Of a stretch of 58,952 nt of DNA, positions 7,266-52,266 are shown in pieces; position 1 is the first letter of the stretch; every line of letters begins with the position of its first letter. The position numbers and the translations under genes are program-made. Source of the DNA: Planctomycetota bacterium (lineage in GTDB: Bacteria > Planctomycetota > SZUA-567 > JAFGNG01). The stretch lies in assembly GCA_016927125.1 (NCBI GenBank), contig JAFGNG010000028.1:1-58952 (forward strand). The letters run 5' to 3'. The notes beneath the pieces are model-generated. The model saw only the letters and a program-made list of their open reading frames with translations, was not told where the DNA came from and did no database searches.

Positions 7266-7299
7266 GATAAAGCGCCCACTCCCCCTTGGGCGCTTTATC
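7266..7299 (-). terminator. Perfect 13-bp-stem hairpin downstream of the sigma-fusion gene
   Basis: GATAAAGCGCCCA (7266-7278), an 8-nt loop, then TGGGCGCTTTATC (7287-7299), 70 nt after the stop at 7369. No strong T-tract follows, so terminator function is uncertain. Confidence 0.45.
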
Positions 7300-11169: not shown

Positions 11170-11440
11170 TTAATTCTCCTCCTCTATACTCTATTCTTAA
11201 ATGCCCGGCAGAAGCACAAAGGTGAAATTATTTTGTTATTTTTTTTATTTTCGCAAACCGCTCGCGTTTTACAGCTTTAGAGTAGCTTAAAATTATTAAT
11301 ATGAGAAGGAAAATCAGCATAATAACTCTACCTGGTTTCGCTACAAGTGGTTATTAGATAAGCAGGTAAAGCAATTAACTTCAGTGAGTGAGAAAACATA
11401 CGGAAAATGTACGTGATTTGTATCTGAGCAAAGCCACGGC

Positions 11441-11590
11441 GACTAACTGAGACTCAACTGGGTGTTTTGCAAGAAATGCAAGCTGCATAAAAAAACTATA
11501 AAGCAGGCGTAAGTCCCACTTTCCAAATTAGTTATATTGGAGCCACAAGGCCGATTCGTGCTTGTTGACCTGCGGTTTACAAAGCTGCTG
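11441..11590 (-). repeat. Repeat copy A: decayed tRNA-Thr 3' half (11538-11590), degraded terminator hairpin with T-tract, and conserved flank block
   Basis: Hand alignment to 45639-45935. The tRNA-derived part matches at 42/53 positions and the 41-nt flank block (11448-11488) at 38/41. It lacks the TTGGGCG pair. Confidence 0.7.
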
Positions 11591-11653
11591 TCAAATTGCG
11601 GATGATGTATTATTTTCCCCAAACTATTAATTTCTACTAATTCTCCATTAATC

Positions 11654-18373: not shown

Positions 18374-18490
18374 TAATACCGCCCCCCCCCTTCTCCCTCA
18401 TCACTCCTGCCCAGTGAGATTCTATGAGATGAGCTGAGGCTGACCTGACCGCTTACCGGAGAGCTAAGCTTTTTACTAAAACCATAAAAT

Positions 18491-18519
18491 AAAGGCGGCC
18501 TCATTCAGAAGCCGCCTTT
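18491..18519. terminator. Hairpin terminator between convergent genes
   Basis: AAAGGCGGC, an 11-nt loop, then GCCGCCTTT. On the minus strand it is followed by ATTTTATGG, so it best serves the 2567-aa gene. Confidence 0.55.
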
Positions 18520-18557
18520 ATCAAAACCATTAATCCTAAGAAAAGATATCCTTCTAC

Positions 18558-21500
18558 TTACCGGCTTTCGCTATAGTGACTCTTGAGAATAGTAAAATCT
18601 GCGAAATCAACTATGCCGTTTCCGTCTAAATCTGCAGGCGCAAAATCGGTGTTGTAGTTTTTCTTTAAGAGGTTGAAATCTGCAAAATCAACTTTGTTGC
18701 TGCCATCAATATCTCCCGGGATCCAATCCACTGTTATTGAAACCGGTTCGCTCCACACGTTATTTTCATTCTTAACTCGCAGGATCACTTCATAGGGAGG
18801 ATAACCAGGCATAACCGCCGGGTTATAGCCATAACCCGGGAAGTTGTGGGTAAACTGCACCGCGGTTGATATTACCGCGGTATCCAGAGTCCATTCCCAT
18901 TCGACAATCGTATCGCCCTCGGGGTCAAAACTGCCGACCGCGTCTAACTTCACCTCCAGATTACCCTGAAGTTCAAAGCTTGGCACCGCAATGGGATCTT
19001 CATCAACATCAGCCACCGGGATGATAATATCTTCATCATAGGTTTCACCCCTACCGTCATCAGCACGAACGGTAATGATATATTCTGGCGTGGTTTCGAA
19101 ATCGATTGCCGCGCCAGAAGTAACTATTAATCTTGCCAAGCCGGCATCATTAACGATTTCGAAATTGCCGCTCGGGTCGCTTATCATTGAGAAGGAAAGA
19201 AGATCATCATTGGGATCAGTACCACTGATAATACCAACTAAGGTGCCTCCCGGACTATTTTCCGGGATGGCGAGGTCAGATTGCAGGAGATAAGCATATG
19301 CCGCACCGCAGTCATCCTCATCATTTGCCCCGGCAAGGGCATATTCCCCGGAAATAAATACTGCACGGCCAAATTCGTTGTTGGGGGTAGCGTCATCAGG
19401 AGTAATTTTGACAACCTCGAGCCAACCGCTGCCAAAGCGTTTAAAAAGGTAAACCGAGCCGGAATCTGGTCCGGAGTTATCGTCGCCATAAGCCCCAAGA
19501 GTTACATAGTCTCCAGAAATGGCGACGGCATAGCTGAAATAATCGCTCGCCTCGCTGTCAGAAGCGATCAGCTTGGCTTGTTCACTCCAAAAGAAGCCCT
19601 GGCGCTTGAAAACATAAGCTGAACCAGCGCCACTATTCTTTAAATAGGAGCCAACCACAGCGTCGTCGCCGGAAATGGAGACAGACTTGCCGAACCAGTC
19701 AGCCAACGCTCCGTCAGAGGCGGTTAACTTGGCTTCCTCTTTCCAGATAGTTTCATCTCGAGTGAAAATATAGGCAGAACCGGAATCGTTGCCGTTGTCA
19801 TCGTCCCGATAAGACCCGATAATGACTGAGTCGCCGGAAATGGCAACCGCGCATCCGAAACAGTCGCCTAATTCGCCGTCAGCCGGGACCAGCTTGGCTT
19901 GCTCGGTCCAGGTGGCATCATTTCGCTTAAAGATATAAGCGGCGCCAAAATCACCGCCGATGCCATCGCAGCCCACCGCGCCGACTACGGCGTAATCGCC
20001 GGAAATGGCAACCGAGCAGCCGAAGAAGTCATCTGCTGCGCTGCCCGAGGGGATTAACTTGGCTTGCTGGGCCCAAGTGCTTCCCGTACGTTTAAAAATA
20101 TAGGCTGAGCCGGAATTGCTGCCATGGTCATCGTTAAACATTGCCCCGGCAATGGCGTAATCGCCGGAAATTGAGACAGACTTGCCGAAGTAATCACCAA
20201 ATGCGCCGTCAGAGGCGGTCAGCTTGTCTTCCTCCAGCCAACTTGTGCCATCCCGCTTGAAAATGTAGGCTGAACCATAATTATAACCGCCGGTATCATC
20301 AGACCCAGCCCCGATAATTGCGTACTCTCCAGAGAGGCTAACGGAACAACCGAAATAATCATAATCCGCGCCGTCAGAGGCGGTTAACTTGGTTTCCTGG
20401 GTGTTGACTGTAAATGCGGAAAGGTCAATATCAGTAGGCGCTTCATTTGGTTTAGGAATAATCGCCGGAATCGTATAGGTAATTTCAAGTTTCGGCGCCC
20501 ATTCTGCCTGCTCCATACCGCCCAGGACATACTGGTTGTTTGCGATCCCCAAGGCGCCTTCATGTGTAATAAAATATGCGTAGAATGAATTACTGCCATC
20601 GAAATGGTGAAGGCCAGTGGCGAGGTGGAAGCCTTGATAAACATCTGTGCTTTGCCATTCTGTGATAATTGGCAGGACATCAAAATTGTGATAACCACTC
20701 TCAGAAAGAAGCATGGAATAATCCACTTCTGAGCCATGATCACCGCAATCTCCCTGGATCTGGGGCGGGCCAAGCTCTTCGATTATATGCGGTGCATACC
20801 ATCCCACATCTCTATCCCGGTATGCGGCGTTGGTATCGGTATGGTCATAGCCATCGGGATAGGAGGAGGTGCTTTCGGTCCACATGCCATCCCCGTTAGG
20901 ATCAGTAACCGGGGAAACCTCGATTGCGGCATTTGTCGAATTGGCCGGTGAGAATTGATAAATGGTCAAAGTGGCGCTTTCCACGACAGTACCTAAGGGC
21001 AGCGCTTCCAACGCTTCCTTGACCCCGGCAAAATAAATAAGGCAGGCATTGTATTGACCGATTGAATTATCGTCTGTATATGACTGTCCTTGCCTCAGAT
21101 ACGCGCGTTGGCCAACGTTCGGAGGCGGATCCTCTTCCTTTCCAGGAGAAGTCCACCGGCGCAGATTAATATCCATCGTGCCGTTGTAACCATCAACGCC
21201 CTCCTGAAAGACCATTGCACCCCCAGACGGCAAGTCAATCAGCGCATAGTGGTCTTCATCATAACCGATCATTGAGCCTGGATTTATTACCCGGAAACGA
21301 TATTTATGCCCATGGGTATTGATATCCGCGTACATTGCAAACCAAAGTTCAACATAGGTATCACTCGCGTAACTATCATTGATGCCATCTGCATCGCTTG
21401 AAAATTCGCCCGGGGCGGGAGTATAGCTGCCAGCAGGAGCACTGCTCTGGTACCAGCTGGTTTCAACCTCGTCATTATTAGAAATATTTACCGAGTATAA

Positions 21501-26261: not shown

Positions 26262-26574
26262 AACTCCATTCCTCATTCTAAAGACTTTATAACCGAAGAA
26301 TAATTTCGAAATTAATCTATGGTGATAGTTATAGATAGGTAAGCTACGTGATGGGCAGGTAATAACACCGGATCTGCTATAATTATACTGATATTTTCCA
26401 GAGGCATTTACCCGCCGGCTGTTAAGTAATAATTCCAGCTACCTATTATAGCAATAAGTTAAAAAATATCCTCCGCTGAGCACATATTGGCTTTATTATA
26501 AAATGTAGTATAAATCAGTATTTGTCAATTAGCTTGTTATAATATAACCTGATAAGTGTATTATATCCTCTAAT

Positions 26575-26765
26575 CCCCTTGGGCGTTCTTTTGGGCGTGA
26601 CCATGAAGGCAACATGAGACTACCTGAGACCGAACTGGGTGTTTTGCAAGTTTCGCAAGAAGCATAAAAAATTGGATAGCAGGCGTAAGTCCCGTTATCC
26701 AATCTTGTTATGATGAAGCACCCAATCGATTCATGCCTGGTGACACTCGGTTTACAAAGCTGTTG
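26575..26765 (-). repeat. Repeat copy B: decayed tRNA-Thr 3' half (26714-26765), terminator hairpin (26671-26703, T-tract on minus), TGAGAC x2, TTGGGCG x2
   Basis: Same order and orientation as 45639-45935. The hairpin stem ATTGGATA/TATCCAAT shows a compensatory change relative to CTGGATAG/CTATCCAG. The copy lies ~90 nt downstream of the 26859 stop, so the hairpin can terminate that gene. Confidence 0.75.
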
Positions 26766-26828
26766 ATGGGAAGTGCTTACCTCTTACTTGTAAACCATCA
26801 CCTACAACTTAATTGATTTAGCCTTAAC

Positions 26829-26851
26829 CGTCCCGTTGGGCGGAATTGTGG
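26829..26851. repeat. Orphan 23-nt fragment of the repeat's TTGGGCG end
   Basis: CGTCCCGTTGGGCGGAATTGTGG matches CGTCCAGTTGGGCGGAACTGGGG (31418-31440) at 20/23 positions. The two copies bracket the 26859-31163 gene as direct repeats. Confidence 0.5.
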
Positions 26852-26858
26852 CTGAATT

Positions 26859-29800
26859 TTACCTGTGCTCCCCATAATGCGTTTTCAAGATGACAAAATC
26901 AGTGAAATCAATCCTGCCGCTCTGGTCGAAGTCTGCGGGCGGGCAAGTGGTGCTGTACACGGTTCTCAGGATGATGAAATCTTCATAATCGACATGATCA
27001 TCACCATTAATATCACCCTGGAGCCAGTCCACAACAACTGAGACCGGTTCGCTCCACAGCTCGTGCTCATCCTTCACGCGCAGGAACACTTCATGCGGGC
27101 CGCGGTTCGCGAAGATGTAATTGAAATCCAAGGCTGTTGAAATAATAGTATCGCCCAGCTTCCATTCATACTCGGTAATTGCTTCGCCATCAGGGTCGAA
27201 ACAGCCAGAAGCATGGAAATACACTTTCAGCATTTCATACAACCCGGTTTCCGGCACCAATGCAAATGCGGGTACAGCGATCGGAGCTTCATTGACATCA
27301 AGCACCATGATAGTAAACTCCTCGTCGTATATCCCTCCGTTTCCATCGTCAGCGCGGATAGTGATGTTGTGCGAGATAGCGGCTTCGTAGTCCAGGGTAG
27401 CGCCGGCAGCTAACTGCAGCTTCCAGGTGCCACTGTGGTTAATCACTTCAAAGTAACCCGAAGGATCGCTGTGCAACGAGAAGGTAAGGGTATCATTCTC
27501 AGGATCAACACCGGTAATTGTATTGATCAATGTTCCTGCAGGGCTGTTTTCTTCTACATCCGGTTGCAGGTTATTAAGATTGTAGATATATGCGGAGCCG
27601 GAATCAGTGCCATTATCATCATCTCTATAAGCTCCGATCACAGCATAGTTTCCAGAAATGGAAACAGAGGAACCAAAGCAATCAACTTCTTCGCCGTCAG
27701 GGGCGGTCAATTTCTTAACTTCTGTCCAACTGGTGCCATTTCGTTTGAAGACGTAAGCAGAGCCAGGATCTTTTTGAAGTAAACCAGTACCAATCACAGC
27801 ATAGTCGCCGGAGATCGAGACAGAGTGGCCAAAGCCATCATACAACTCGCCGTCAGAGGCAATGATTTTGGTTTGTTCAGTCCAACTGCTTCCATCTCGT
27901 TTGAAGATATATGCAGCGCCGGAATAATAGCCATTGTTACCGTCACGGTCTGCTCCGATTACGGCATAGTCCCCGGAAATCGAGACAGAGCAGCCAAAAG
28001 CCTCACTCCTTACGCCATCAGCAGCGAAGATTTTGGTTTGTTCAGTCCAACTGGTTCCGGTTCGTACAAAGACATAAGCAGAGCCGCAAGCTATGCCATT
28101 ACCATCGCTATAAGGGCTTCCAATAACAGCATAGTCACCGGACATGGAGACAGAGGAACCAAAGCTATCATGACCATCACCGTCAGAAGCAATGATTTTA
28201 GTTTGTTCAGTCCAACTGATTCCGGCTCGGTTAAAGACGTAAGCGGAGCCGGAAAAATAGCCATTGTCATAGTCGCCCGGGGCCCCGACTACAGCGTAGT
28301 CTCCGGAAATAGAGACAGACTCACCGAAATAATCACCCACCGAGCCGTCAGAGGCGGTGATCTTAGTTTGTTCAGTCCAACTGCTTCCATCCCGTTTAAA
28401 AATATAAGCTGAACCGGGATTTGGATTCTGGCCATAATGAGCACCGCTAATTACGTAGTCGTCGGAAATAGAGGTGGAGCAGCCGAAGTGATCATTTGCC
28501 GCGCCGTCAGAGGCAGTCAGTTTGGTTTCCTCTGTCCAACTGGAACCACTTCGCGCAAAGATATAAGCAGAGCCGGAAGCACTGCCATTATCATCGTCAC
28601 CCTGAGCTCCGACTACCGCGTAGTCGCCGGAGATGGAAACAGATAAACCAAAGTTATCCAACTCTTCGCCATCAGAGGCGGTGAGCCTTGTCTCCAGCGC
28701 ACTCAAGTCTATATCAATAGGCGCTTCATTGACATCAAGTACTATGATAGTAAAGTTCTCATCGTATATCTCAGCATGCTCATCATAGGCGCGGATAGTG
28801 ATGTTATGCGAAGAGGCGGTTTCATAATCAAGGGTAGCGCTGGAGGCTACCTGCAGCTTCCAGGTGCCAGCATCATAAATAACTTCGAAATTGCCAGAAG
28901 GATCGCTTTGCAGATAGAAAAATACCGTGTCGTCATCAGGATCAGTACCGGTGATGATACCGACCAGGGTTCCGGCAGGACTGTTTTCTGCAATCTCGTT
29001 ATTAGACAACGAGATATCATCAGGCGCCTCATTGACATCAAGTACAATGAGAGTAAAGATTTCATCATATATCCCGCCATTTCCATCATCTGCACGGATA
29101 GTGATGTCATGCGAAGAGGCGGTTTCATAATCAAGGGTAGCGCCGGGAGCTGCTTGCAGCTTCCAGGTGCCGCCGTCATTAATAACCTCGAAATTTCCTG
29201 AAGGATCGCTTTGTAGTGAGAAGGTAAGGGTGTCGTCATCGGGATCAGTACCGGTGACGATACCTACTAAAGTTCCTGCAGAACTGTTTTCTGCAATCTC
29301 GTTATCAGTCAAAGAGATATCATCAGGCGCTTCATTAACATCAAGTACAGCAATAGTAAAGTTCTCGTCATATGTCCAACCATTCCCATCATCGGCGCGG
29401 ATAGTGATGTCATGCGAGATCGCGGTTTCGTAATCAAGGGTTGCGCCGGGAGCCACCTGCAGCTTCCAGGTGCCGCCATCATCAATAACCTCGAAATTGC
29501 CGGAAGGATCGCTTTGCAGAGAGAATGAAAGCGTGTCGCCATTGGGATCAGTACCAGTAATTATACCGACCAGGGTTCCTGCAGGACTGTTTTCTGCAAT
29601 ATCGCTATTAGACAAAGATATATCAGTCGGTGCTTCATCAATATCCAGTACGATGATAGTGAAGACCTCGTCATAGATCCCCCCATTCCCGTCATCGGCA
29701 CGGATAGTGATGTCATGCGAGGAAGTGGTTTCATAATCAAGGGTAGCTCCAGGAGCTACCTGCAGCTTCCATTCGCCGCTATCTTCTACGATTTCAAAGT

Positions 29801-31163
29801 AGCTTGAAGGATCGCTTTGCAGAGAGAAGGTGAGAGTATCACCATCTGGATCAACACCGGTAATTGTACTGACCCAAGTTCCTGCAGGGCTGTTTTCCTT
29901 AACAGCCAATTGGATATCGTATACATATGCAGACCCGGAATTACTGCCATTGTCATCGTCGCCATAAGCCCCTATCAAGGCGATATCATTGAAAATCGAG
30001 ACAGAACCAAAAAAGTCTTCGGCCGCGCCGTCAGAGGCAGTGATTTTAATCTGTTCAGTCCAACTGGTTCCATTCCGTACGAAGATATAAGCAGATCCGG
30101 AATCTGGGCCGTTGTCATTATTACCATTAGCCCCGACAATGGCATAGACGCCGGAGATGGATACAGAACAACCAAAATAATCATTCATTGCGCCATCAGA
30201 TGCGGTCAGCTTGGCTTCCTCAGTCCAACTGGTGCCGTCACGTTTAAAGACATATGCAGAGCCGGAATCGGTGCCATTGTCATCGTCTCTATTAGCTCCG
30301 ATAACAGTGTAGTCGCCGGAAATGGAGACAGATTGGCCAAAGTAATCATCCGCTGCGCCATCAGAGGCGGTTAGCTTGGCTTCTTGAATCCAACTGGTAC
30401 CGTCGCGTTTAAAAACGTATGCAGAACCGGAAAAGCTACCATTGTCATCGTCTCCATAAGACCCGACCACGGCATAGTCGCCGGAAATAGAGACAGACAA
30501 ACCGAAAAAATCATACTCTGCAGCATCAGAGGCGGCCAGCTTGGTTTGTTCAGTCCAATTAGTGCCGTCGCGTTTAAAGATGTATGCAGCACCGGAGCCA
30601 TTGCCATTCTCTTCGTCTTCATAAGCACCAACCACTGCGTAGTCTCCGGAAATGGATACAGAGTTGCCGAAACAATAATACTCCACGCCGTCACTAGCGG
30701 TCAGCTTGGCTTGCTCAGTCCAACTGGTGCCGTCGCGTTTAAAGATGTATGCAGAGCCGGAATTATTGCCATTGTCATCGTCTCCATTAGCCCCGACAAT
30801 AGCATAGTCATCGGAAATCGAGACAGAGCCACCGAAAACATCACTCGCTGCGCCATCAGAAGCAGTAAGTTTAGCTTCTTGAGTCCAGTTGCCGGCGTCG
30901 CGTTTAAAGATGTATGCAGAGCCAGAAGTCTCGCCATTATCATCGTCATAAACAGCTCCCACTACAGCGTAGTCGCCGGATATCGAGACAGAGTTGCCGA
31001 AATGATCACCCACTGAGCCGTCAGAGGAGACAATTTTTGTCTCTGATACATTTGATACTGCTACAGTGAGACTAATATCAGTTGGCGCGTCGTTAGCCAG
31101 TACCAAACTACCACTGCAAACCAGGCTGATTATCATTGCGAATAAAAATCTGCGAGCACTCAT
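26859..31163 (-). CDS. Secreted adhesin-like protein (1434 aa): two FG-GAP-like beta-propeller arrays, five cadherin-like domains, a PKD-like domain and a dockerin-type C-terminus
   Basis: Start at ATG 31163 (GGAG 7 nt upstream; MSARRFLFAMIISLVCSGSLVLA signal). About 15 units of the pattern KLTASDG..D.FG.SVSISGDYAVVGA..DD.NG..SGSAYIFKRDG.SWTEQ. Cadherin-like units carry ENSPAGTLVG..TGTDPD.DTL.FSL and LDVNEAP. The C-terminus is GDINGDDHVDYEDF...DFDQSGRIDFTDF. Confidence 0.85.
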   Translation of the reverse strand: MSARRFLFAMIISLVCSGSLVLANDAPTDISLTVAVSNVSETKIVSSDGSVGDHFGNSVSISGDYAVVGAVYDDDNGETSGSAYIFKRDAGNWTQEAKLTASDGAASDVFGGSVSISDDYAIVGANGDDDNGNNSGSAYIFKRDGTSWTEQAKLTASDGVEYYCFGNSVSISGDYAVVGAYEDEENGNGSGAAYIFKRDGTNWTEQTKLAASDAAEYDFFGLSVSISGDYAVVGSYGDDDNGSFSGSAYVFKRDGTSWIQEAKLTASDGAADDYFGQSVSISGDYTVIGANRDDDNGTDSGSAYVFKRDGTSWTEEAKLTASDGAMNDYFGCSVSISGVYAIVGANGNNDNGPDSGSAYIFVRNGTSWTEQIKITASDGAAEDFFGSVSIFNDIALIGAYGDDDNGSNSGSAYVYDIQLAVKENSPAGTWVSTITGVDPDGDTLTFSLQSDPSSYFEIVEDSGEWKLQVAPGATLDYETTSSHDITIRADDGNGGIYDEVFTIIVLDIDEAPTDISLSNSDIAENSPAGTLVGIITGTDPNGDTLSFSLQSDPSGNFEVIDDGGTWKLQVAPGATLDYETAISHDITIRADDGNGWTYDENFTIAVLDVNEAPDDISLTDNEIAENSSAGTLVGIVTGTDPDDDTLTFSLQSDPSGNFEVINDGGTWKLQAAPGATLDYETASSHDITIRADDGNGGIYDEIFTLIVLDVNEAPDDISLSNNEIAENSPAGTLVGIITGTDPDDDTVFFYLQSDPSGNFEVIYDAGTWKLQVASSATLDYETASSHNITIRAYDEHAEIYDENFTIIVLDVNEAPIDIDLSALETRLTASDGEELDNFGLSVSISGDYAVVGAQGDDDNGSASGSAYIFARSGSSWTEETKLTASDGAANDHFGCSTSISDDYVISGAHYGQNPNPGSAYIFKRDGSSWTEQTKITASDGSVGDYFGESVSISGDYAVVGAPGDYDNGYFSGSAYVFNRAGISWTEQTKIIASDGDGHDSFGSSVSMSGDYAVIGSPYSDGNGIACGSAYVFVRTGTSWTEQTKIFAADGVRSEAFGCSVSISGDYAVIGADRDGNNGYYSGAAYIFKRDGSSWTEQTKIIASDGELYDGFGHSVSISGDYAVIGTGLLQKDPGSAYVFKRNGTSWTEVKKLTAPDGEEVDCFGSSVSISGNYAVIGAYRDDDNGTDSGSAYIYNLNNLQPDVEENSPAGTLINTITGVDPENDTLTFSLHSDPSGYFEVINHSGTWKLQLAAGATLDYEAAISHNITIRADDGNGGIYDEEFTIMVLDVNEAPIAVPAFALVPETGLYEMLKVYFHASGCFDPDGEAITEYEWKLGDTIISTALDFNYIFANRGPHEVFLRVKDEHELWSEPVSVVVDWLQGDINGDDHVDYEDFIILRTVYSTTCPPADFDQSGRIDFTDFVILKTHYGEHR
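28700..29910 (-). repeat. Four tandem ~303-bp intragenic repeats encoding cadherin-like domains
   Basis: Four consecutive ~101-aa units with most residues identical (for example SDPSGNFEVI.DGGTWKLQ.APGATLDYET..SHDITIRADDGNG). The DNA-level similarity is visible by eye. Confidence 0.7.
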
Positions 31164-31411: not shown

Positions 31412-31615
31412 GTTGGGCGTCCAGTTGGGCGGAACTGGGGAGACTTCCTGAGACTCTGTGAGACTACATGAGACTGAACTGGGGGTTTTGCAATTTACGC
31501 AAGAGGCTTGAAAACAGCTGGATAAAAGGTGTAACTTACACTATTCAGATTAGTTATATTGGAGCCACAAAGCCGATTCGCGCCTGGTGACAGACGGTTT
31601 ACAAACCGGTCGGCC
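31412..31615 (-). repeat. Repeat copy C: decayed tRNA-Thr 3' half (31560-31615), hairpin (31518-31548, one mismatch on minus), TGAGAC x4, TTGGGCG x2
   Basis: Same order and orientation as 45639-45935. Four GAGAC boxes sit at exact 10-bp spacing (31440-31474). GTTGGGCG occurs at 31412-31419 and 31424-31431. Confidence 0.75.
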
Positions 31616-37101: not shown

Positions 37102-37363
37102 CCAGACAAATTAATCTTAATTTGTTTGTCATGTTTAATTCAATAAAGATTTGCTCAACTGTTTAAACAATCATTTTTGTTGAGATCCGTAGATACCACA
37201 TGGGATGTTCTCTTGGGAGGAATTGGGGCTTAAATAGAGTATGAATCGTAAGCAAAAGCATTTGTAGAGTCATGGAAAATAAGAATCCCTCCGCAGCATT
37301 CTCTTTAGAGGTGCTCTCTTTATCGGGGGGCCCAACTATTCATCCGCTCTGCTTATAATAAAG

Positions 37364-37870
37364 TTACTTCCCGTTTTTCCTGGTGGTCGTAAAGAGGTCA
37401 TAAAGCACCGGGATCAGCACCAGGGTAAATACGCCGGAAATAAAGATCCCGCCAATTGACGCAACTCCAACGCCATTGCGCATCTCGGCGCCAATCCCTC
37501 GTCCGAAAGCCAGGGGCATCATTCCCAGTACCGCTGCCATGGTAATCATGACAATGGGACGGAAGGGTTCGCAGGTGGCGCTGATCATAGCTTTGTGGCG
37601 CGGGACACCCTCGGCAATATGTACATTGAACTGGCCCACAATCAGGATCGCGTTATTCACCACAAAGCCCGTCATGATGACAAAGCCCATAATCTCAAAG
37701 ATACCCAGGCTCAATCCGGCAAGGGCGAGGGCCCAGATCATGCCAATCAATGCGAGGGGGAGAGTAATAATCGCCAGGCTGGGTTGCTTATAGGATTCCA
37801 AAATCGCCGCCAGGGTTAAAAAGATCATGATTACCACTATAAGCAGGGCCTCGCCAAGAGCAACCTGTGC
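37364..37870 (-). pseudogene. 5'-truncated remnant of an RND permease (last ~168 codons, TM10-12 region)
   Basis: The frame is open only from 37870 (in-frame TAA at 37871-37873). The translation ...LAAILESYKQP..GFVVNNAILIV..PIVMITMAAVLGMMPLAFG..VLIPVLYDLF matches the C-terminal ~15 percent of pumps such as 13617-16715. No RND sequence lies upstream. Confidence 0.7.
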
Positions 37871-45617: not shown

Positions 45618-45638
45618 CCTATTGGGTTTTATCCAAAT

Positions 45639-45859
45639 CCCCTTGGGCGCTCTGTTGGGCGCAACCAGGGATACTCTATGAGACAGCATGAGACTGAACT
45701 GGGTGTTTTGCAAGAAATGCAAGAGGCATGATATTTCAAAGAATGATTCAAAAGCTCTTCAGTGGGATTAGACTTTAAAAAAGCCGTAACTCCAATTTTC
45801 CTATGGCAATAAAGAAACTGGATAGCAGGCGTAAGTCCCACTATCCAGCTTGATTATGA
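45639..45859 (-). repeat. Repeat copy D (reference copy): downstream flank of tRNA-Thr with terminator hairpin, conserved block, TGAGAC x2, TTGGGCG x2
   Basis: Terminator CTGGATAG-N15-CTATCCAG (45818-45848) plus TTTCTTT on the minus strand. TGAGAC at 45679 and 45689. TTGGGCG at 45643 and 45655. It carries a ~90-nt insert (45729-45815) absent from copies A-C. Confidence 0.75.
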
Positions 45860-45935
45860 TGGAGCCACCTACCCGATTCGAACGGGTGACCTGCGGTTTA
45901 CAAAACCGCTGCTCTACCAACTGAGCCAAGGTGGC
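45860..45935 (-). tRNA. tRNA-Thr (anticodon UGU), CCA encoded
   Basis: 76 nt folded by hand: acceptor GCCACCT/AGGTGGC, D arm GCTC-AGTTGGTA-GAGC, anticodon arm GCGGT-TTTGTAA-ACCGC, variable AGGTC, T arm ACCCG-TTCGAAT-CGGGT, discriminator T, CCA. Confidence 0.93.
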
Positions 45936-46509
45936 GGATTAGTTAAGCTGCTTTAAGTGCTTGGAGCTAGAATCTCCAGGGTTTTGTTTGCTATTTCTGT
46001 TCTCGGCTTCTGACCTTAATAATTCTGGTTTATCAGAACAAAGCCGATGAATCCCAGTTAAAACAGAAAAAGTCAAGCTCGCAAAACCACTCAAAGCTCT
46101 ACTTCAACCAGTCGTCAAGGCGATTTATATCAACATTCAAAAAAACATCATACTATTTCAAATCGGACTTGTCCAGTGCATTATATACTTCGGCATTTTC
46201 CCCCTTGGAATTGCCTCTTATTGTGCAGTAATGCTTACATAACCAGGGTGCAGGTGTTAGGCCAACTGAAGCTGCTGGCTACTTTTTAATGCTTGCCAAA
46301 TACCTGGCGCTGATTAAAATTCCCTCATTAGCAACCCGGCTTTTCTGAAATCGAGCTTGATTTGGGAGTTTACAATCAGGATCCCTTAAAAATGCTTAAA
46401 AACTTACGTAACTTAATAGTTAAATTCAGCTTCCGAGGGATTTGATTAAAAACGTAACATAGTATTATAGTCAGTCAACCGCACATTCTTTTAGAGAGGA
46501 GAGAGTTAC

Positions 46510-47553
46510 ATGTTTACACAGCGGAAAGCAAAAATGGTTTCCTTGGTAATTATAGTATTACTCGTTCTGGGATGGTTTGCGTTGCCTCCAGCCACCGCGG
46601 GAGAAGCAACTCCGCCGCAGGCGAAAGCAGAAGTTAAGGAACCCAATGCGGCTGAGCTTTATGCCTTGGCTTTTGAGGCTATTAGTGATGATCCTGCAGG
46701 CTTCCGGAAAGAATTTTTAATTACAAGATTCCCCGAGCTGCCCGAACCATTGAAGCCATTGACTGAAAAAGAGCTTGCCATTATCGAATCCGGTGATGTG
46801 AAGCAGATGTCAATGCCTTTCGTGCGGGAGGTCAGAGAGGTGGTGGAGACCACGCGCAAAGCTTCGAAGATTAATCACTGCGACTGGAAGCTGGACTGGA
46901 CTCAAGGCCCTGAAATGGACTTGTATCATCTTGAGCCTGCCAAGACCCTGAGCCGGCTTGCCTGCATGCGCGCGGATTATATGTTGGATTTCTCCATCAA
47001 TACGCCCATGAATCCGCGTAACAAGGCCTCCGCCGCGCGAAGAGCGATCCAGGATCTGATTACAACCCTGGAGATGGCGCGGCATGTCGGATCAGATGGC
47101 ACAGTGGTTTCTGCCCTGGTTGAAATTTCGATAGAAAATCAAGTTATCCTCAAGGCTGCTTCGCTATACTCGAGGATGGATGCAAACGCCAGGGAAATCC
47201 TGAAGAAGGGGATTCTTGCCACCCCTGAGGGAATCACACTTGCGCAGGCTTTAGAATGCCTGGAGAAGGAAAAAGCGCAATTGGCGGAATACGTCAAAAA
47301 ACTTACTCCGGCTGCAAAGCAGGAAATTGAAAAATCTTTACAGAGATCCGAGCAAGAAATCCCTGAATTCTTCCTGCGCATTAATGAACTCCGCCGCTTG
47401 CTCCGCGAAGGCCTTGAACGCGAGGTTGAAGAGGAAAAAGACGGCACGCCCAAGGCTTTCACCCTGACTTCGGAGAAGTCCTACAAGGGCAAGCCGATTG
47501 AGTTGATCTTCGACTATCCCCTCCCGGAAGAGATGGAAGCGGAAGCCGAATAG
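46510..47553 (+). CDS. Hypothetical secreted or membrane-anchored helical protein
   Basis: 347 aa with strong RBS GAGAGGAGAGAG and N-terminal hydrophobic segment VSLVIIVLLVLGWFALPPATA. No family recognised. Confidence 0.5.
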   Translation: MFTQRKAKMVSLVIIVLLVLGWFALPPATAGEATPPQAKAEVKEPNAAELYALAFEAISDDPAGFRKEFLITRFPELPEPLKPLTEKELAIIESGDVKQMSMPFVREVREVVETTRKASKINHCDWKLDWTQGPEMDLYHLEPAKTLSRLACMRADYMLDFSINTPMNPRNKASAARRAIQDLITTLEMARHVGSDGTVVSALVEISIENQVILKAASLYSRMDANAREILKKGILATPEGITLAQALECLEKEKAQLAEYVKKLTPAAKQEIEKSLQRSEQEIPEFFLRINELRRLLREGLEREVEEEKDGTPKAFTLTSEKSYKGKPIELIFDYPLPEEMEAEAE

Positions 47554-47601: not shown

Positions 47602-50600
47602 CTACTCAAACCGCAAGCGCCCCAGGCGTTTCTGCGTGTGCCAGTCAATATACCCCTGGTATGACCAGCAGCTCGGGGCGACCAGGTCGTTGCGGTACTT
47701 GCGGTAGAAATTAATCAGCCACCGCTCGCGCTGTCTGGTCTGTTCCAGATCCCCCAGCGGGATTAAGACCTCGGCAGTCCAGTAGCCCTGCCCCTTCCAG
47801 ATCACTGTCTGCCACGGCGGTTTGAAATCATAATCGCGGCCGCCATTCTCAACCTTCTGGTCAAAATGGACGCCCTTGGTGTTGAAGGCCAGTTGGTAAT
47901 AGAGATCGACCTCCGCGTCGGGATGGATCATCATTGCCAGCACATCATCGCGCGAGCCGTAGATTTCATTCTCCATCTCTGCGCTGGCTTTGAGCTTATC
48001 AGGCTCCCGATCGGCGCAGGCAAAGGCGACGTAGAGATTCTTGTCATCATAAAGCGCCTTGACGCCGGTCTCCAAAATCGACTTCTGCTTCTCCTTCACC
48101 TTCCAGAAGCCGGTGGTGAAAGGAATTGCTTCCCAGGCGGCTTCATCCAGGCGACCATCAATGGTGATTTCTCCGGTAGCGCGTTTAGTCAGCATGGTGG
48201 GCAGCGCTTCCGGATCCGGGTTGGGATCTATCTTTGCCAGGCTTTCCGGGAGGAATGCCTGGTATTGTGCAGCCTTCTCCAGGAATTCCCACCAGGGATG
48301 GTAGAACTGATAGTTGGTAACCCGGTTCCAAACCTTGGCGTACAGTCCCTGGGCAAGCTCATGGCGGGAAGCGGCAATGGTTTGATGCAGGTAGTCCTGT
48401 TCTTGTTCTGAAATGCTGAGCTTGATTTGGGGATCAGCCAGCAGTTTATCAGCGCGCTCAATTATATTACTCAGGAAAGAGAGCTCTGGCCCGCTGATCG
48501 GCTGGGTATGGAATTCAAGGATTTTTAAATCTTTAGAGTTTACCCGGAAAACAGCCAATCCGTAAGGGTTGAGTTTGACCGGCACATGAATCATACCATC
48601 ATCCCTATTGGTTCCGGTTTCTCTACCGCTGGGAATCTCATAGACCCTGCCTTTGGCTTCAATTACTACGCTGCCAGCAATGTGCCAGTAGCCGGGATTC
48701 GCAACATAGATCCAGGATTCATTCCCGGAAGAATATTTGCGGATCGCCAGGTTGGTGGTGAGCCCTGTATTCATGACTACTTCAAAATCCGCCTTGGGAA
48801 GGTGCGTAAAGGTTTGCATAATGCTGCGCAGTTCCTGCTCGTGGCCGACATTGATATGGAGATCGGTCCAGCCGCCCAGAACCAGCCCCGGGTCCGCGGT
48901 GATGATTGCCTGGATAAAGGCCTCGCGCGCGTGGTAGCCGCTCGGCTGCGGCAGTGTCCGCGTCTTGGAACAATTCATAATCCAGTCTGATTCCACCAGG
49001 AGATGGCGGTCCTGCGCGCCTTCGCTCTTCAGCATATAGCCGCCGCTCAGGAGCATATTCTCGTCCCAACTGGTGCGGACCAGGACGCCGCGCTGCCTGC
49101 TCTTGGCAAAGGCCGAGACAATCCCCGGATCGGTGCGCGCCAGCCAGCAGTAGGAATCCTGGCTCGGGAAGTCGCCGTGGATATCCTGCCAACTGATGGT
49201 CCAGCGGGTATTACAATAATTTTCAAGCGCCCCCAGGCCCTCAAGGTCAATTCCGAAATCCTTCATAATGTCTTGAAACGAATCTTCCGAGTTTGCCAGG
49301 TAGCGGCAGAATTTTTTATCCCCTTCCACCAAGGTGTTGACCAACTCCAGATCCTCGCGGAAATTCTTCAGCCGCTGGACTGCCTCTGCGCAAAAAGCAG
49401 TATAAGCCCCGGCGCGCCAGTCGAGGAAGTTCCGGCGGAGTTCTTCATCTGCTTTGATCGCGTCAAACCTCTTGGCAAAGCGGCTGGGATCGGTTTCGGC
49501 AATCCCGAGATCGTTGCCGGTTTCCTTGGCAAAGCGTTCCATGGCATGGTCATCAAAGCTCGCTTCCAGGGGATTGTCATAGTTGCTGCCCAGGCCATAG
49601 CCCGGCAGCCAGTAGCTGGCAGTGCTGTCCGGGCCGCTCAAGTGGTGAACCCCGCGGTAGCGAGGCAGGTGGGCGTAGGCGCGCGATAAGCTTTCCAGTA
49701 AATCAAAGAACTTCCCCTGCACTGCCGGGTGCATGAAGTTCTGCACCTCGGAAACCCGCGCAAAGCCATAGCGTTGTTCACCCTTGCCGTTTACCAGCCA
49801 GGGGGTATCGGCGCCCTTGGCAACCTCCGCGTTATTCGCGTACCCGCGCACCCTGCCGCTCTGGCTGAAGCCAACGCCAGCATAGAAATCTATGTTGTTA
49901 ATCTCAAAGAGATTAGCCATCATGGTGCGCATGCAGTGGCGAATACGAGAGGTTTCTATTAAGGGAACCGGCACGAAGGGCGTATCCCCCTCGTTGTACT
50001 GGTAACATCCCATGACATGGGTATTCTGCCCGGAGAACTTGAGGTACTGCACATAGCGCTCGCCGGTTTCCAGGAGCCAGACCAGGTCGCGCAACTGAAC
50101 CTTCATCAACGGCTCCGTCTCCGGTTCCACCAGCCAGGTATCTTCCCAACCCTCTGCGTTCTTCAAATACCGCGAGCCAAAACTGCGCCCGATGCCGGAG
50201 GTGTAGAAGCAACGCTCGCTATGAATACCATAGTTGCGGTTGTTACCGCTCTCGACAGAAGGGAGATCCCCCTTGACCCGGTAGATGCGCAAGAGTTTAG
50301 CGGCCCCGTTTTGGTTATTAATGGCGTTGAGGACATCCACGGTATGCGGGCCTTCGTCCGCGACGTGGATCCAGTTGAGTTTCTGCATTTTATTGGTCAG
50401 GTAAAGCTTGCCCCCGGTCTCAATCCCCGCGCCGGTCTGGCTGTTGGTCCAGATCTTCTCGCGCTTGCTCGTGATAGAGACGACAGTGATGCGCTGTGCG
50501 TCGTCGGGGTACTCCAGCTCCATCAGGTAGAAGGAACCGGGATGCTTGAATTCTATCCGGTAACTGAAGCCGGAGCCGCGCCGGGGGTCAGTCACCTCGC

Positions 50601-52266
50601 GATAACGCATTTCTCCATTTTGCGTAATGGTCGGTGCCTCCACCCGGGGAGCCACCATCCCGGTAAGGCTCGCCGGCATCCGGGATTCGCGCCAGGGATG
50701 CGGATCTTCCGGGTTGGTGAAGTCAATAGTGTCTTCCAGCTCCAGCTCAAGCCCTTCTTTATAATCGGTCCCAGCAATCTTTTTGAGTTCAAGTCGCCTC
50801 AGAATCACCAGCGGCTCGCGGGAACGCTCCGCAATCACCTTGCCATCACTGCCGGTAAGTTTAAGCGCCAAGGCGTAAACCCCGAAAGGCTGTTTGCCGA
50901 GATTAAGAGTATAAACCAGGGAATTATTGATTTCCTTAAAGTCGGATATTGTCTTTTGAGAAACCTCCTGGCTATCACCGTCCAGATCCGCTTTGCTGAA
51001 ATAAGCGGTCAGTTGCGGCGATTTATCCTTGAAGCCGATCGGCGTATAAACCTCAACAATCGCATCCTCGGAACTGCGGTAAAAGAGGTCAGGTCGAGAA
51101 GGGTTTTTCATAACCAACACCCCGCCATACTCCGGGATGCCGAGCTGCCGCGCCGGGCCGCGGAGATCAATCTTCGGCGCAGAGCCCTTGCGCTCCCGGT
51201 AATACAGCTCCATCACCCCGCTGACTACCTCGGCCTCGTCCTCCCCGTAATCCTCCGCCTTGACCTGGAGCCATGCAGAACTATCGAATTCGGCCTGGTT
51301 CCAGCCTTCCTGGTAATCCGGTGAAAATCTCCAGCCTTCAGCGGTAGCCGTTTCGATCACCGCGCCGCTCACCATTACGATCTTCGCCTGGAAATATAGC
51401 GGTGGGTTCTTGCCGATCCTGCGGCCATAAAAGCCGGCAACGTTCTTGCCGGGCTTGAGATACTTGGCAATATCCACGGGAATGGTATGATCCAGGGACA
51501 GCATCCCGGTTTCTGTGATCTCTTCGCCATTGATATAGAGACGGCTGATCACCTCATCATTTCCGGCAAGGTGCGCGTAGTTGGTAATGGTGGCATTGGC
51601 AATGGCGCGCCAAACGCCGCCCTCGGGGAGGGTGAAGTCGCCGCGGCAGTAGCCTTCATAGATCGGTTGGACAAGTTTGACTGATTTCAGTTTGATGCGG
51701 GTTCCCGCTTCAGCCCTGATCCTCAGTTCCAAGCCATCCGGATTCGGGCCGGAGGTCTGCAAGGGCTCGAAGGCCAGCTCCTGCTCGCCCTGCCCCTCCA
51801 GGACTGTCCTCCCGGTGCGAGACTGCGGTTGGCCATCGCTCCAGTAACGCAGCCGCCATTCACTCTTATCCGAAGATTGGCTGAGCTGCAATTTCACTGC
51901 AAAATATTCCTGCCAGGTATTAGCGATCTCTGCAATTACTTGTTCGCCTTTGTAGTTGCCCCAGCCGAGGATGGCTTCTTCCCCGGTGACAGTGAAAGCG
52001 AGGCTCTCGCCATCCAACTCCACCTCCTCTACCCCGAGGAAGGTGGTGAAGTTAGCGCGATTAGCAGTTGCGAGAAAGACCTTGTCGCGTTCTTTAACGG
52101 GAAGCTCCATGCCGCTGCCGAAGAGATATTCATTAATCTCCGGATCCTCGATCTCCATGGAGGGGGCGATTGCTTCCGGTTCGGTTCCAGTTGCAGCCGC
52201 GAAAAGAGAAAATGAAAGGGAAATTATTATGGTAAAGGAGCTTAAAAATCGTGGTAGCTTTGACAT
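47602..52266 (-). CDS. Giant secreted glycosidase-like protein (1554 aa), paralogue of the N-terminal half of 18558-26261, with a C-terminal CBM9-like module
   Basis: Signal peptide (FTIIISLSFSLFAAATG), RBS AAGGAG. Collinear similarity to the 2567-aa protein over ~1300 aa, for example DFTLPEGGVWRAIAN vs EFTLPAGTVWRAIAD and HSERCFYTSGIG vs HTERTLYSSGIG. The last ~195 aa align with the C-terminus of the sigma fusion. Confidence 0.8.
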   Translation of the reverse strand: MSKLPRFLSSFTIIISLSFSLFAAATGTEPEAIAPSMEIEDPEINEYLFGSGMELPVKERDKVFLATANRANFTTFLGVEEVELDGESLAFTVTGEEAILGWGNYKGEQVIAEIANTWQEYFAVKLQLSQSSDKSEWRLRYWSDGQPQSRTGRTVLEGQGEQELAFEPLQTSGPNPDGLELRIRAEAGTRIKLKSVKLVQPIYEGYCRGDFTLPEGGVWRAIANATITNYAHLAGNDEVISRLYINGEEITETGMLSLDHTIPVDIAKYLKPGKNVAGFYGRRIGKNPPLYFQAKIVMVSGAVIETATAEGWRFSPDYQEGWNQAEFDSSAWLQVKAEDYGEDEAEVVSGVMELYYRERKGSAPKIDLRGPARQLGIPEYGGVLVMKNPSRPDLFYRSSEDAIVEVYTPIGFKDKSPQLTAYFSKADLDGDSQEVSQKTISDFKEINNSLVYTLNLGKQPFGVYALALKLTGSDGKVIAERSREPLVILRRLELKKIAGTDYKEGLELELEDTIDFTNPEDPHPWRESRMPASLTGMVAPRVEAPTITQNGEMRYREVTDPRRGSGFSYRIEFKHPGSFYLMELEYPDDAQRITVVSITSKREKIWTNSQTGAGIETGGKLYLTNKMQKLNWIHVADEGPHTVDVLNAINNQNGAAKLLRIYRVKGDLPSVESGNNRNYGIHSERCFYTSGIGRSFGSRYLKNAEGWEDTWLVEPETEPLMKVQLRDLVWLLETGERYVQYLKFSGQNTHVMGCYQYNEGDTPFVPVPLIETSRIRHCMRTMMANLFEINNIDFYAGVGFSQSGRVRGYANNAEVAKGADTPWLVNGKGEQRYGFARVSEVQNFMHPAVQGKFFDLLESLSRAYAHLPRYRGVHHLSGPDSTASYWLPGYGLGSNYDNPLEASFDDHAMERFAKETGNDLGIAETDPSRFAKRFDAIKADEELRRNFLDWRAGAYTAFCAEAVQRLKNFREDLELVNTLVEGDKKFCRYLANSEDSFQDIMKDFGIDLEGLGALENYCNTRWTISWQDIHGDFPSQDSYCWLARTDPGIVSAFAKSRQRGVLVRTSWDENMLLSGGYMLKSEGAQDRHLLVESDWIMNCSKTRTLPQPSGYHAREAFIQAIITADPGLVLGGWTDLHINVGHEQELRSIMQTFTHLPKADFEVVMNTGLTTNLAIRKYSSGNESWIYVANPGYWHIAGSVVIEAKGRVYEIPSGRETGTNRDDGMIHVPVKLNPYGLAVFRVNSKDLKILEFHTQPISGPELSFLSNIIERADKLLADPQIKLSISEQEQDYLHQTIAASRHELAQGLYAKVWNRVTNYQFYHPWWEFLEKAAQYQAFLPESLAKIDPNPDPEALPTMLTKRATGEITIDGRLDEAAWEAIPFTTGFWKVKEKQKSILETGVKALYDDKNLYVAFACADREPDKLKASAEMENEIYGSRDDVLAMMIHPDAEVDLYYQLAFNTKGVHFDQKVENGGRDYDFKPPWQTVIWKGQGYWTAEVLIPLGDLEQTRQRERWLINFYRKYRNDLVAPSCWSYQGYIDWHTQKRLGRLRFE

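Follow-up and report, generated by a model that had tools for sequence, protein, structure and literature searches.

Site-specific insertion of genomic islands into transfer RNA (tRNA) genes is recognized by Islander through the logic of a regenerated target plus a displaced 3′ fragment, anticodon-centered sites being the commonest class, and arrays of at least three islands were encountered only four times in 3919 islands (PMC4383910). At the attachment (att) site attL of KplE1, the arm-type sites of IntS and five TorI sites directly follow the 3′ end of argW, the TorI sites being 12 nt and 2 nt apart and accompanied by P′ arm-type sites (PMC2951348). ICEMlSymR7A possesses a 283-bp attP with five arm-type motifs, and winged-helix directionality factors and their relatives bind DNA head-to-tail with one DNA turn between protomers (PMC11963761). 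Here, these systems are compared with a repeated unit of ~190 bp that occurs in four copies (A, B, C and D) in contig JAFGNG010000028.1 of a Planctomycetota bacterium (assembly GCA_016927125.1). The window analyzed is the whole 58,952-bp contig, and all inference rests on the copies within it. The units carry short phased direct repeats, or boxes, of two kinds, TTGGGCG and TGAGAC; a preliminary description of these boxes was silent on any tRNA, and the origin of the unit in a tRNA-Thr gene is recognized here. We tentatively favor the reading that the units are scars of serial site-specific insertions at this gene and that the boxes are arm-type recombinase sites or directionality-factor sites.

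The anatomy of the unit can be read directly from the window. Copy D contains an intact tRNA-Thr(TGT) gene on the minus strand (Table 1), and the unit is a copy of the 3′ two-thirds of this gene together with ~135 bp of downstream DNA. In minus-strand order, it consists of the 3′ two-thirds of the tRNA, a terminator hairpin, a small TTGC-N7-GCAA hairpin, CCCAGTT, a variable number of GTCTCA boxes and two CGCCCAA boxes. Copies A, B and C retain only the 3′ part of the tRNA, which is cut at or just past the anticodon loop and is decayed, with degenerate T-arms, and CGGTTTACAAA is invariant in all four copies. To the right of the anticodon loop, the four copies show no detectable homology with one another; the DNA beyond it is unrelated, and therefore three different junctions share one break point within the tRNA sequence. 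An extension of A and C into the 5′ half of the tRNA was considered and rejected by local alignment against shuffled sequences. On the left, AATCCCC is common to B and D, which then diverge, and C begins at its first box. Copies A, B and C all have the orientation of the intact tRNA, which stands at one end of the array with the copies on its 3′ side. The intact tRNA, the direct-orientation 3′ fragments and the common break in the anticodon loop together form the signature of tRNA-targeted site-specific integration, and the recognition of this origin makes the arm-type recombinase or excisionase reading the best supported of the three that the preliminary description had offered, the others being iterons and response-regulator binding arrays. 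Iterons, which are 17–22-bp repeats beside a rep gene or origin, are unsupported, as the motifs measure only 6–7 nt and no replication-initiator gene was found among the window open reading frames (ORFs) scanned.

The terminator hairpin is strong in D (folding energy −21.7 kcal/mol, z −6.4) and B (−16.2 kcal/mol, z −6.0) and decayed in A (−7.5 kcal/mol) and C (−4.7 kcal/mol). A scan with Rfam 15 matched only the real tRNA in the window, and the pseudo-tRNAs of units A–C remained unmatched even at E ≤ 5. Just past the 5′ end of the minus-strand tRNA-Thr, a plus-strand terminator-like hairpin is located at 45960–45980 (CTTGGAGCTAGAATCTCCAGG + GTTTTGTTTG), which could end a plus-strand transcript of the cus operon running antisense through the tRNA.

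The boxes reported in the preliminary description were confirmed by direct reading. TTGGGCG-N5-TTGGGCG, with starts 12 bp apart, is exact in B, C and D (26579, 31413 and 45643), and a window scan allowing up to two mismatches returned four matches against 0.79 expected. The 10-bp spacing of TGAGAC holds as well: the exact pattern TGAGAC-N4-TGAGAC is found at 26615, 31449, 31459 and 45679, with 0.11 expected by chance, giving two boxes in B, two in D beside a third, decayed one (GGATAC), and four in C (three exact and GGAGAC, one mismatch from TGAGAC), while A, which has no TTGGGCG box, shows one TGAGAC preceded by a 4/6 match, GGCGAC. Both patterns are far above chance, and the observation is real and statistically sound. 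TGAGAC is also strongly strand-biased window-wide, with 25 occurrences on the plus and 2 on the minus strand (~14 expected per strand); the units hold only 8 of the 25, and outside them the counts are 17 plus and 2 minus.

For the analysis of conservation, box columns were defined on copy C alone, and B and D were then scored at those columns. The identity of B and D to C amounts to 61/64 (95%) in the boxes, 21/44 (48%) in the inter-box spacers and 181/264 in the rest of the unit (Fisher's test, 1e-8 for boxes vs. spacers and 1e-6 for boxes vs. the rest), in units whose pairwise identity is 64–78% (22–36% diverged); this indicates selective conservation of the boxes and not merely shared ancestry. 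In any single copy, the hexamers are retained although no two of the 4-nt spacers are alike, so the array is not a young slippage repeat. From the first TTGGGCG to the last TGAGAC, B and D both measure 46 bp, and C measures 56 bp; thus, C has exactly one additional 10-bp unit, and the sole indel of the box region maintains the phase. The last TGAGAC is followed at 19 bp by an invariant TTGCAA in 4/4 copies. Conservation of the unit peaks not in a box but in TGAGAC-N2-AACTGGGKGTTTTGCAA-N5-GCAAG, a 35-nt block that is identical between A and D at 34 positions, compared with 70% for the whole of these two units, and that contains a third small direct repeat, YGCAAK-N3-YGCAAG. The confinement of conservation to the boxes, this core block and the anticodon loop is as expected if related att sites had diverged under protein-binding selection.

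The same data bear on the view that the unit has no present function and is a decaying segmental copy, the boxes being leftover 10- or 12-bp slippage duplications or long-dead binding sites. The number of TGAGAC boxes varies (1.5, 2, 2+1 and 4), the outer boxes are decaying (GGATAC in D, GGCGAC in A, lost in B), A has lost both TTGGGCG boxes (2/14 identity at these columns), and there is neither a partner protein gene in the window nor a copy found outside the contig, all of which would suit neutral relics. This view is nevertheless doubtful, because the spacers differ in a single copy where the hexamers are kept, because the boxes are conserved far above both the spacers and the rest of the unit, and because the fullest arrays are those of C, the copy in which the decay of the tRNA part and the hairpin has gone furthest.

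Under the favored reading of insertion scars, the unit would represent the tRNA-proximal arm and the core of the att site of an integrative element. Gene modules, comprising two efflux operons with a lipoprotein-sorting module, two giant FG-GAP/cadherin genes and perhaps a gene for an extracytoplasmic function (ECF) sigma fusion, would have entered tRNA-Thr in succession at its anticodon loop, and every insertion would have displaced the prior copy of core plus arm outward, leaving a new copy beside the tRNA. In this scheme, the invariant CGGTTTACAAA that marks the truncated edge would correspond to the core with its crossover; TGAGAC, with its 10-bp period, and TTGGGCG, with its 12-bp period, would be bound by a tyrosine recombinase as arm-type sites and/or by a directionality factor, proteins that oligomerize head-to-tail on a single helical face. 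Anatomy, conservation and context are read from the sequence; binding by proteins and recombination are deduced, and the recombinase itself would have been lost or would be encoded elsewhere in the genome. TGAGAC lies 123–126 bp from CGGTTTACAAA (205 bp in D, owing to a D-specific insertion) and TTGGGCG ~160–180 bp from it; two motif classes with 10- and 12-bp periods, placed 120–180 bp from the putative crossover and differing by an indel of one turn, fit known att arms. A further short match, piece F, is located ~60 nt right of the edge of B's tRNA fragment, that is, beyond its break point, just past the stop codon of giant gene 2. It is the best non-self match in the window to a box region of C, scoring above the true homologues in B and D, and only 1 of 60 shuffles reaches its score of 20. 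Because of this position and its best match to the box variant of C, piece F looks as a second-arm site would, and it may be the second-arm site of the element ending at C. The cargo between the units is island-like and includes a fragment of an AcrB gene.

Several observations weigh against insertion scars, the main weakness being that neither an integrase or excisionase gene nor any remnant of one was found in the window. No integrase, excisionase, resolvase or transposase domain (including PF00589) was detected in any sizeable ORF of the window, and a search of small ORFs and of the six-frame translation of the four unit-bearing gaps gave nothing at E ≤ 0.1. Consequently, the tyrosine integrase gene that Islander seeks within each island is lacking here. 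Second-arm sites are mostly missing; in the 200 nt to the right of their break points, A and C have no box motif. Some T-arm changes are common to A, B and C but are not seen in the live tRNA, which implies that these copies descend from a common degenerate or element-borne version and not from three successive working 3′ ends. Homology extends ~135 bp past the tRNA end in every copy, beyond ordinary displaced fragments, and the low identity among the units means that the events are old or that the elements had already diverged. Finally, no related copy of the unit was found outside the contig, nor was a second genome, an empty site or an excised form.

Table 1. Units, partial pieces and gene modules of the window (N, any nucleotide; positions are those of the contig).
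Feature	Coordinates	Strand	Composition or remark	Evidence
tRNA-Thr(TGT), intact	45860..45935	-	3′ two-thirds form the right part of unit D	ARAGORN; Rfam tRNA, 69 bits
tRNA terminator hairpin	45815..45851	-	15-bp stem and T-rich tail; homologous hairpins strong in B, decayed in A and C	terminator scan, folding
Unit D	45636..45911	+	TTGGGCG 45643, 45655; GGATAC 45669; TGAGAC 45679, 45689; invariant core AACTGGGTGTTTTGCAA-N5-GCAAG 45697-45723; ~80-nt D-specific insertion 45731-45811; hairpin; tRNA 3′ part up to CGGTTTACAAA 45894-45904	
Unit C	31413..31612	+	TTGGGCG 31413, 31425; GGAGAC 31439; TGAGAC 31449, 31459, 31469; core 31477-31503; decayed hairpin; pseudo-tRNA fragment 31560-31611, CGGTTTACAAA at 31595	
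Unit B	26572..26770	+	edge AATCCCC; TTGGGCG 26579, 26591; TGAGAC 26615, 26625; core 26633-26659; hairpin; pseudo-tRNA fragment 26714-26766, CGGTTTACAAA at 26748	
Unit A	11429..11600	+	no TTGGGCG; GGCGAC 11438; TGAGAC 11448; core 11456-11482; decayed hairpin; pseudo-tRNA fragment 11538-11590, CGGTTTACAAA at 11573; block 11448-11482 vs. D, 34/35	
Array E	18415..18440	+	TGAGAT 18415, TGAGAT 18425, TGAGGC 18435; 10-bp spacing	
Piece F	26828..26852	+	CCGTCCCGTTGGGCGGAATTGTGGC; 20/25 vs. C's spacer, box 2 and GAACTGGGG	
Piece G	37213..37228	+	TTGGGAGGAATTGGGG; degenerate box ~12 nt upstream	
Possible piece	7282..7297	+	CCCCTTGGGCGCT, identical to D's left edge over 13 nt	weak alone
Left of A	7369-11169	-	ECF-sigma fusion gene	
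A to E		+	TetR and RND efflux operon	
E to B		-	giant FG-GAP/cadherin/dockerin gene 1	
B to C		-	giant gene 2	
C to D			MMPL, LolA-like, DUF1302-like; AcrB C-terminal fragment 37364-37837 (-); OEP-CusB-CusA operon (+)	

Besides the four units, the window contains a fifth phased array, E, which was not listed in the preliminary description and which lacks a core, a hairpin and a tRNA fragment. It is flanked by the stop codons of the OEP gene of the RND operon (plus strand) and of giant gene 1 (minus strand). The pattern TGAGAY-N4-TGAGAY has five matches in the window, all on the plus strand, against 0.04 expected; with a profile of the unit, E was recovered by nhmmer at E 0.32. Piece G occupies the gap between the DUF1302-like gene and the C-terminal fragment of an AcrB gene, and its pattern has three matches against 0.01 expected, a figure that is suggestive only, as the pattern was partly tuned post hoc. 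The adjoining 157-amino acid ORF (37364–37837, minus strand) aligns to the AcrB/ACR_tran profile over its final 150 positions only, and this fragment next to piece G marks an old rearrangement junction. The possible piece at 7282–7297 (CCCCTTGGGCGCT) is the 3′ arm of the terminator hairpin that follows the ECF-sigma fusion gene. That hairpin is one of two clean bidirectional terminators in the window, at 7270–7297 (AAAGCGCCCA..TGGGCGCTTT), where the 3′ arm is a TTGGGCGC box, and at 18493–18521 (AAAGGCGGC..GCCGCCTTT). With these pieces counted, no inter-operon gap from 6.8 to 46.5 kb is without a unit or piece, always in the same orientation, and the gaps past the tRNA (46.5–59 kb) have none; since the criteria for pieces were picked after looking, this regularity is a lead and not a statistic.

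The units could instead be live capture sites of a tRNA-anchored, integron-like system with its recombinase encoded elsewhere in the genome, a speculative notion to which we assign a low probability. It is similarly improbable that the ~190-bp unit, with its anticodon-loop core and two classes of phased accessory sites on one arm, serves to stack operon-sized cassettes lacking an integrase beside tRNA-Thr. Such a system would explain the occurrence of units or pieces in every inter-operon gap across 40 kb, as well as the intact boxes beside a decaying tRNA and terminator.

Multiple short sub-terminal direct repeats are typical of the ends of Tn7-like and Mu-like elements. Furthermore, gene-sized modules are bracketed by the box-containing sites, and GTTGGGC fits the integron core GTTRRRY, although this consensus is too degenerate to carry meaning here. 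It is nonetheless highly improbable that the units are transposon ends with sub-terminal transposase sites, miniature inverted-repeat transposable elements or integron-type sites, given that the window has no transposase, TnsABC or IntI gene, that neither terminal inverted repeats nor an attC-like palindrome is present, and that transposition would not duplicate 50 nt of a tRNA. Integron attI and attC sites in particular were rejected on the grounds that no integrase is present and that the boxes are direct, not inverted, repeats.

The position of the arrays relative to genes bears on a regulatory role. All of A, B and C are positioned upstream of minus-strand genes; A and C precede plus-strand efflux operons too, and only in this pair is the intervening hairpin decayed; in 4/4 copies, direct reading shows TTGCAA followed 15–17 nt later by an A-rich hexamer. 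Together with the 10-bp period of the direct repeats and the selective conservation of the boxes, this layout would suit transcription-factor arrays, in which a winged-helix regulator (of the OmpR/PhoB type or similar) occupies the phased repeats and controls a promoter. We consider this unlikely, and no likelier are the specific versions in which the promoters are those of the minus-strand giant and ECF genes or a plus-strand promoter built on the TTGCAA that lies 19 nt beyond the last box. Unit D and array E lie between convergent genes, where there is nothing to regulate. The preliminary description had placed the boxes upstream of the TTGACA hexamers of the giant genes. These hexamers do exist (minus strand, 26530–26525 and 31310–31305), but a promoter scan found no matching −10 element for either of them and no promoter in or beside the units, the core included; in addition, the left flanks that bear them are non-homologous between copies, and their distances to the boxes differ (~50 and 100 nt). 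Together with the location of D and E, this weakens the proposed role as upstream activator sites of the giant genes. Neither a Response_reg nor a Trans_reg_C domain was found among the window ORFs scanned, which leaves response-regulator arrays without a gene in the window; the DNA-binding-type proteins encoded there are TetR, PadR and the ECF sigma fusion, none of which can be assigned to the boxes, as had been stated before. Moreover, a regulatory function leaves a tRNA fragment cut at the anticodon loop unexplained. Two further promoter types were tried and rejected: a sigma-54 promoter in the core, because the GG-to-GC spacing is 8–9 nt and not the required 12, and an ECF-type promoter (GAAC-N17-CGCA), because it is inconsistent between copies.

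Unit D and array E begin 20–40 nt past the stop codons of plus-strand efflux operons, a position that is compatible with a plus-strand RNA element, namely a small RNA or an element of the 3′ untranslated region ending at the bidirectional hairpin. We regard such an element as quite improbable, and the same applies to its supposed details, in which the two TTGGGCG boxes would fold into a hairpin (GCGYYC-loop-GGGCG), with the UGAGAC repeats acting as single-stranded binding motifs for a protein or an RNA. Box 1 is followed in every copy by three pyrimidines, which could pair with the GGG of box 2, and the box region of D folds at z −2.1, but B and C fold no better than shuffled sequences (z +0.7 and −0.6), Rfam gives no match even at E ≤ 5, and three to four sequences do not allow a real covariation test. 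A perfect extended −10 element (TGTTATAAT; 26535–26543, plus strand) stands ~35 nt before the first box of B and points into the unit; the promoter scan missed it because it has no −35 match, and no consistent promoter precedes the copies as a group.

Relatives of the unit were sought in several collections. The exact pattern GAGACNNAACTGGGNGTTTTGC had 0 matches in the GTDB representative genomes and two in the JGI metagenomes, both of which were chance matches inside coding sequence. In IMG/VR, the core motif gave 18 chance matches, none of them unit-like, and the combined box pattern gave 0; a blastn search of the unit against phages and plasmids gave no match, and a literature search for TGAGAC direct repeats returned nothing relevant. 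A scan for the 3′ half of the tRNA-Thr identified a nearly identical gene in a single genome, a Planctomycetota metagenome-assembled genome (L004), which has no flanking genes in common with the window. The DNA downstream of its tRNA-Thr is unrelated, with a different terminator followed by broken or frameshifted helix-turn-helix ORFs; therefore, the unit is not conserved tRNA-flanking DNA. Further on there are umuD- and umuC-like genes, and this part of L004 (5340–5940 and 1020–3484) may be the remains of a different element inserted at the same tRNA. The closest homologues of CusA (~70% identity, some from named Planctomycetes) are encoded by cus operons among housekeeping genes, and no tRNA, unit or integrase was found near the cus operon in their contigs.

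Among the other genes of the window, the two giant genes contain long in-frame coding repeats (19300–20400 and 27260–31040), consisting of 165-bp FG-GAP units and 303-bp cadherin-like units that are 60–83% identical and dominate the output of the repeat finder. The N-terminal regions of giant proteins 1 and 2 are not homologous to each other, nor are the upstream flanks of their genes, and a simple tandem duplication of a unit together with a giant gene was rejected for this reason. In the protein encoded at 7369–11169 (minus strand), ECF sigma regions 2 and 4 are joined to a further ~1,100 amino acids, at the end of which there is a weak CBM9-like domain. A 1,554-amino acid protein (47602–52266, minus strand) carries this weak domain at its C-terminus as well, and the two genes have a 40-nt stretch of DNA in common near their 3′ ends (7454 and 47687). 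For the 347-amino acid product of the gene at 46510–47553 (plus strand), on the 5′ side of the tRNA, no homologue beyond itself was found at E ≤ 1e-5 among 5.8 billion proteins. In base composition, the modules are not set apart from the rest of the window.

If the units are insertion scars, ~40 kb of the contig would be a stack of modules acquired at one tRNA gene in a poorly known lineage, including efflux systems for metals and drugs, a module for lipoprotein sorting and the two giant genes, which are adhesin-like. With the boxes as a sequence handle, the remainder of the genome could then be searched for the recombinase and for additional modules, and a rare long tandem array lacking resident integrases would raise the question of mobilization in trans. 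If the boxes are regulatory instead, they would define a regulon tying the giant surface proteins to the efflux systems. Overall, the locus is a plausible, unproven case of a familiar phenomenon, and its importance depends on whether a trans-acting recombinase exists.

Boxes of the OmpR/PhoB family are direct repeats that occur in arrays upstream of promoters. The arrays described here resemble them in having direct repeats of 6–7 nt with a period of 10–11 bp in arrays of two to four. They differ in that two of the five arrays have no downstream gene, and neither the promoter at a fixed distance nor the nearby cognate regulator that characterizes such boxes is found in the window.

The heterobivalent att sites of tyrosine recombinases (lambda attP, KplE1 and ICEMlSymR7A) provide a closer parallel. 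In both cases, two classes of short direct repeats are located just past the 3′ end of a tRNA, and these are tandem and about one helical turn apart. The phased tandem repeats expected on a lambda-type arm within ~200 bp of the core are indeed present in the units. However, no gene for an integrase or a recombination directionality factor follows the arm here, a candidate second-arm site is found in one case only (F, to the right of B's break), and the sequences of the motifs are unrelated to any characterized arm site.

With tandem islands of the Islander type, the locus shares the intact tRNA at one end, the direct-orientation 3′ fragments on its 3′ side, the break in the anticodon loop and the cargo-type genes between fragments. 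As Islander requires, the intact tRNA and its displaced same-orientation fragments (A, B and C) lie on the same replicon, and each fragment extends to the tRNA 3′ end from a canonical crossover sublocation, here the anticodon loop, the T-loop being the alternative. Unlike such islands, no module has an integrase, the fragments are 60–70% identical to the tRNA instead of near-identical, the homology continues for ~135 bp beyond the tRNA 3′ end, and there are at least three modules. As the integrase that Islander requires is absent, no claim of a set of active islands is made; in appearance, and probably in origin, the region resembles a tandem array of islands at a tRNA gene. The feature probably belongs to a familiar kind, namely att-site scars that lie at a tRNA gene and carry phased accessory sites, and what is unusual in it is the lack of integrases, the long conserved arm and the pieces at every module boundary.

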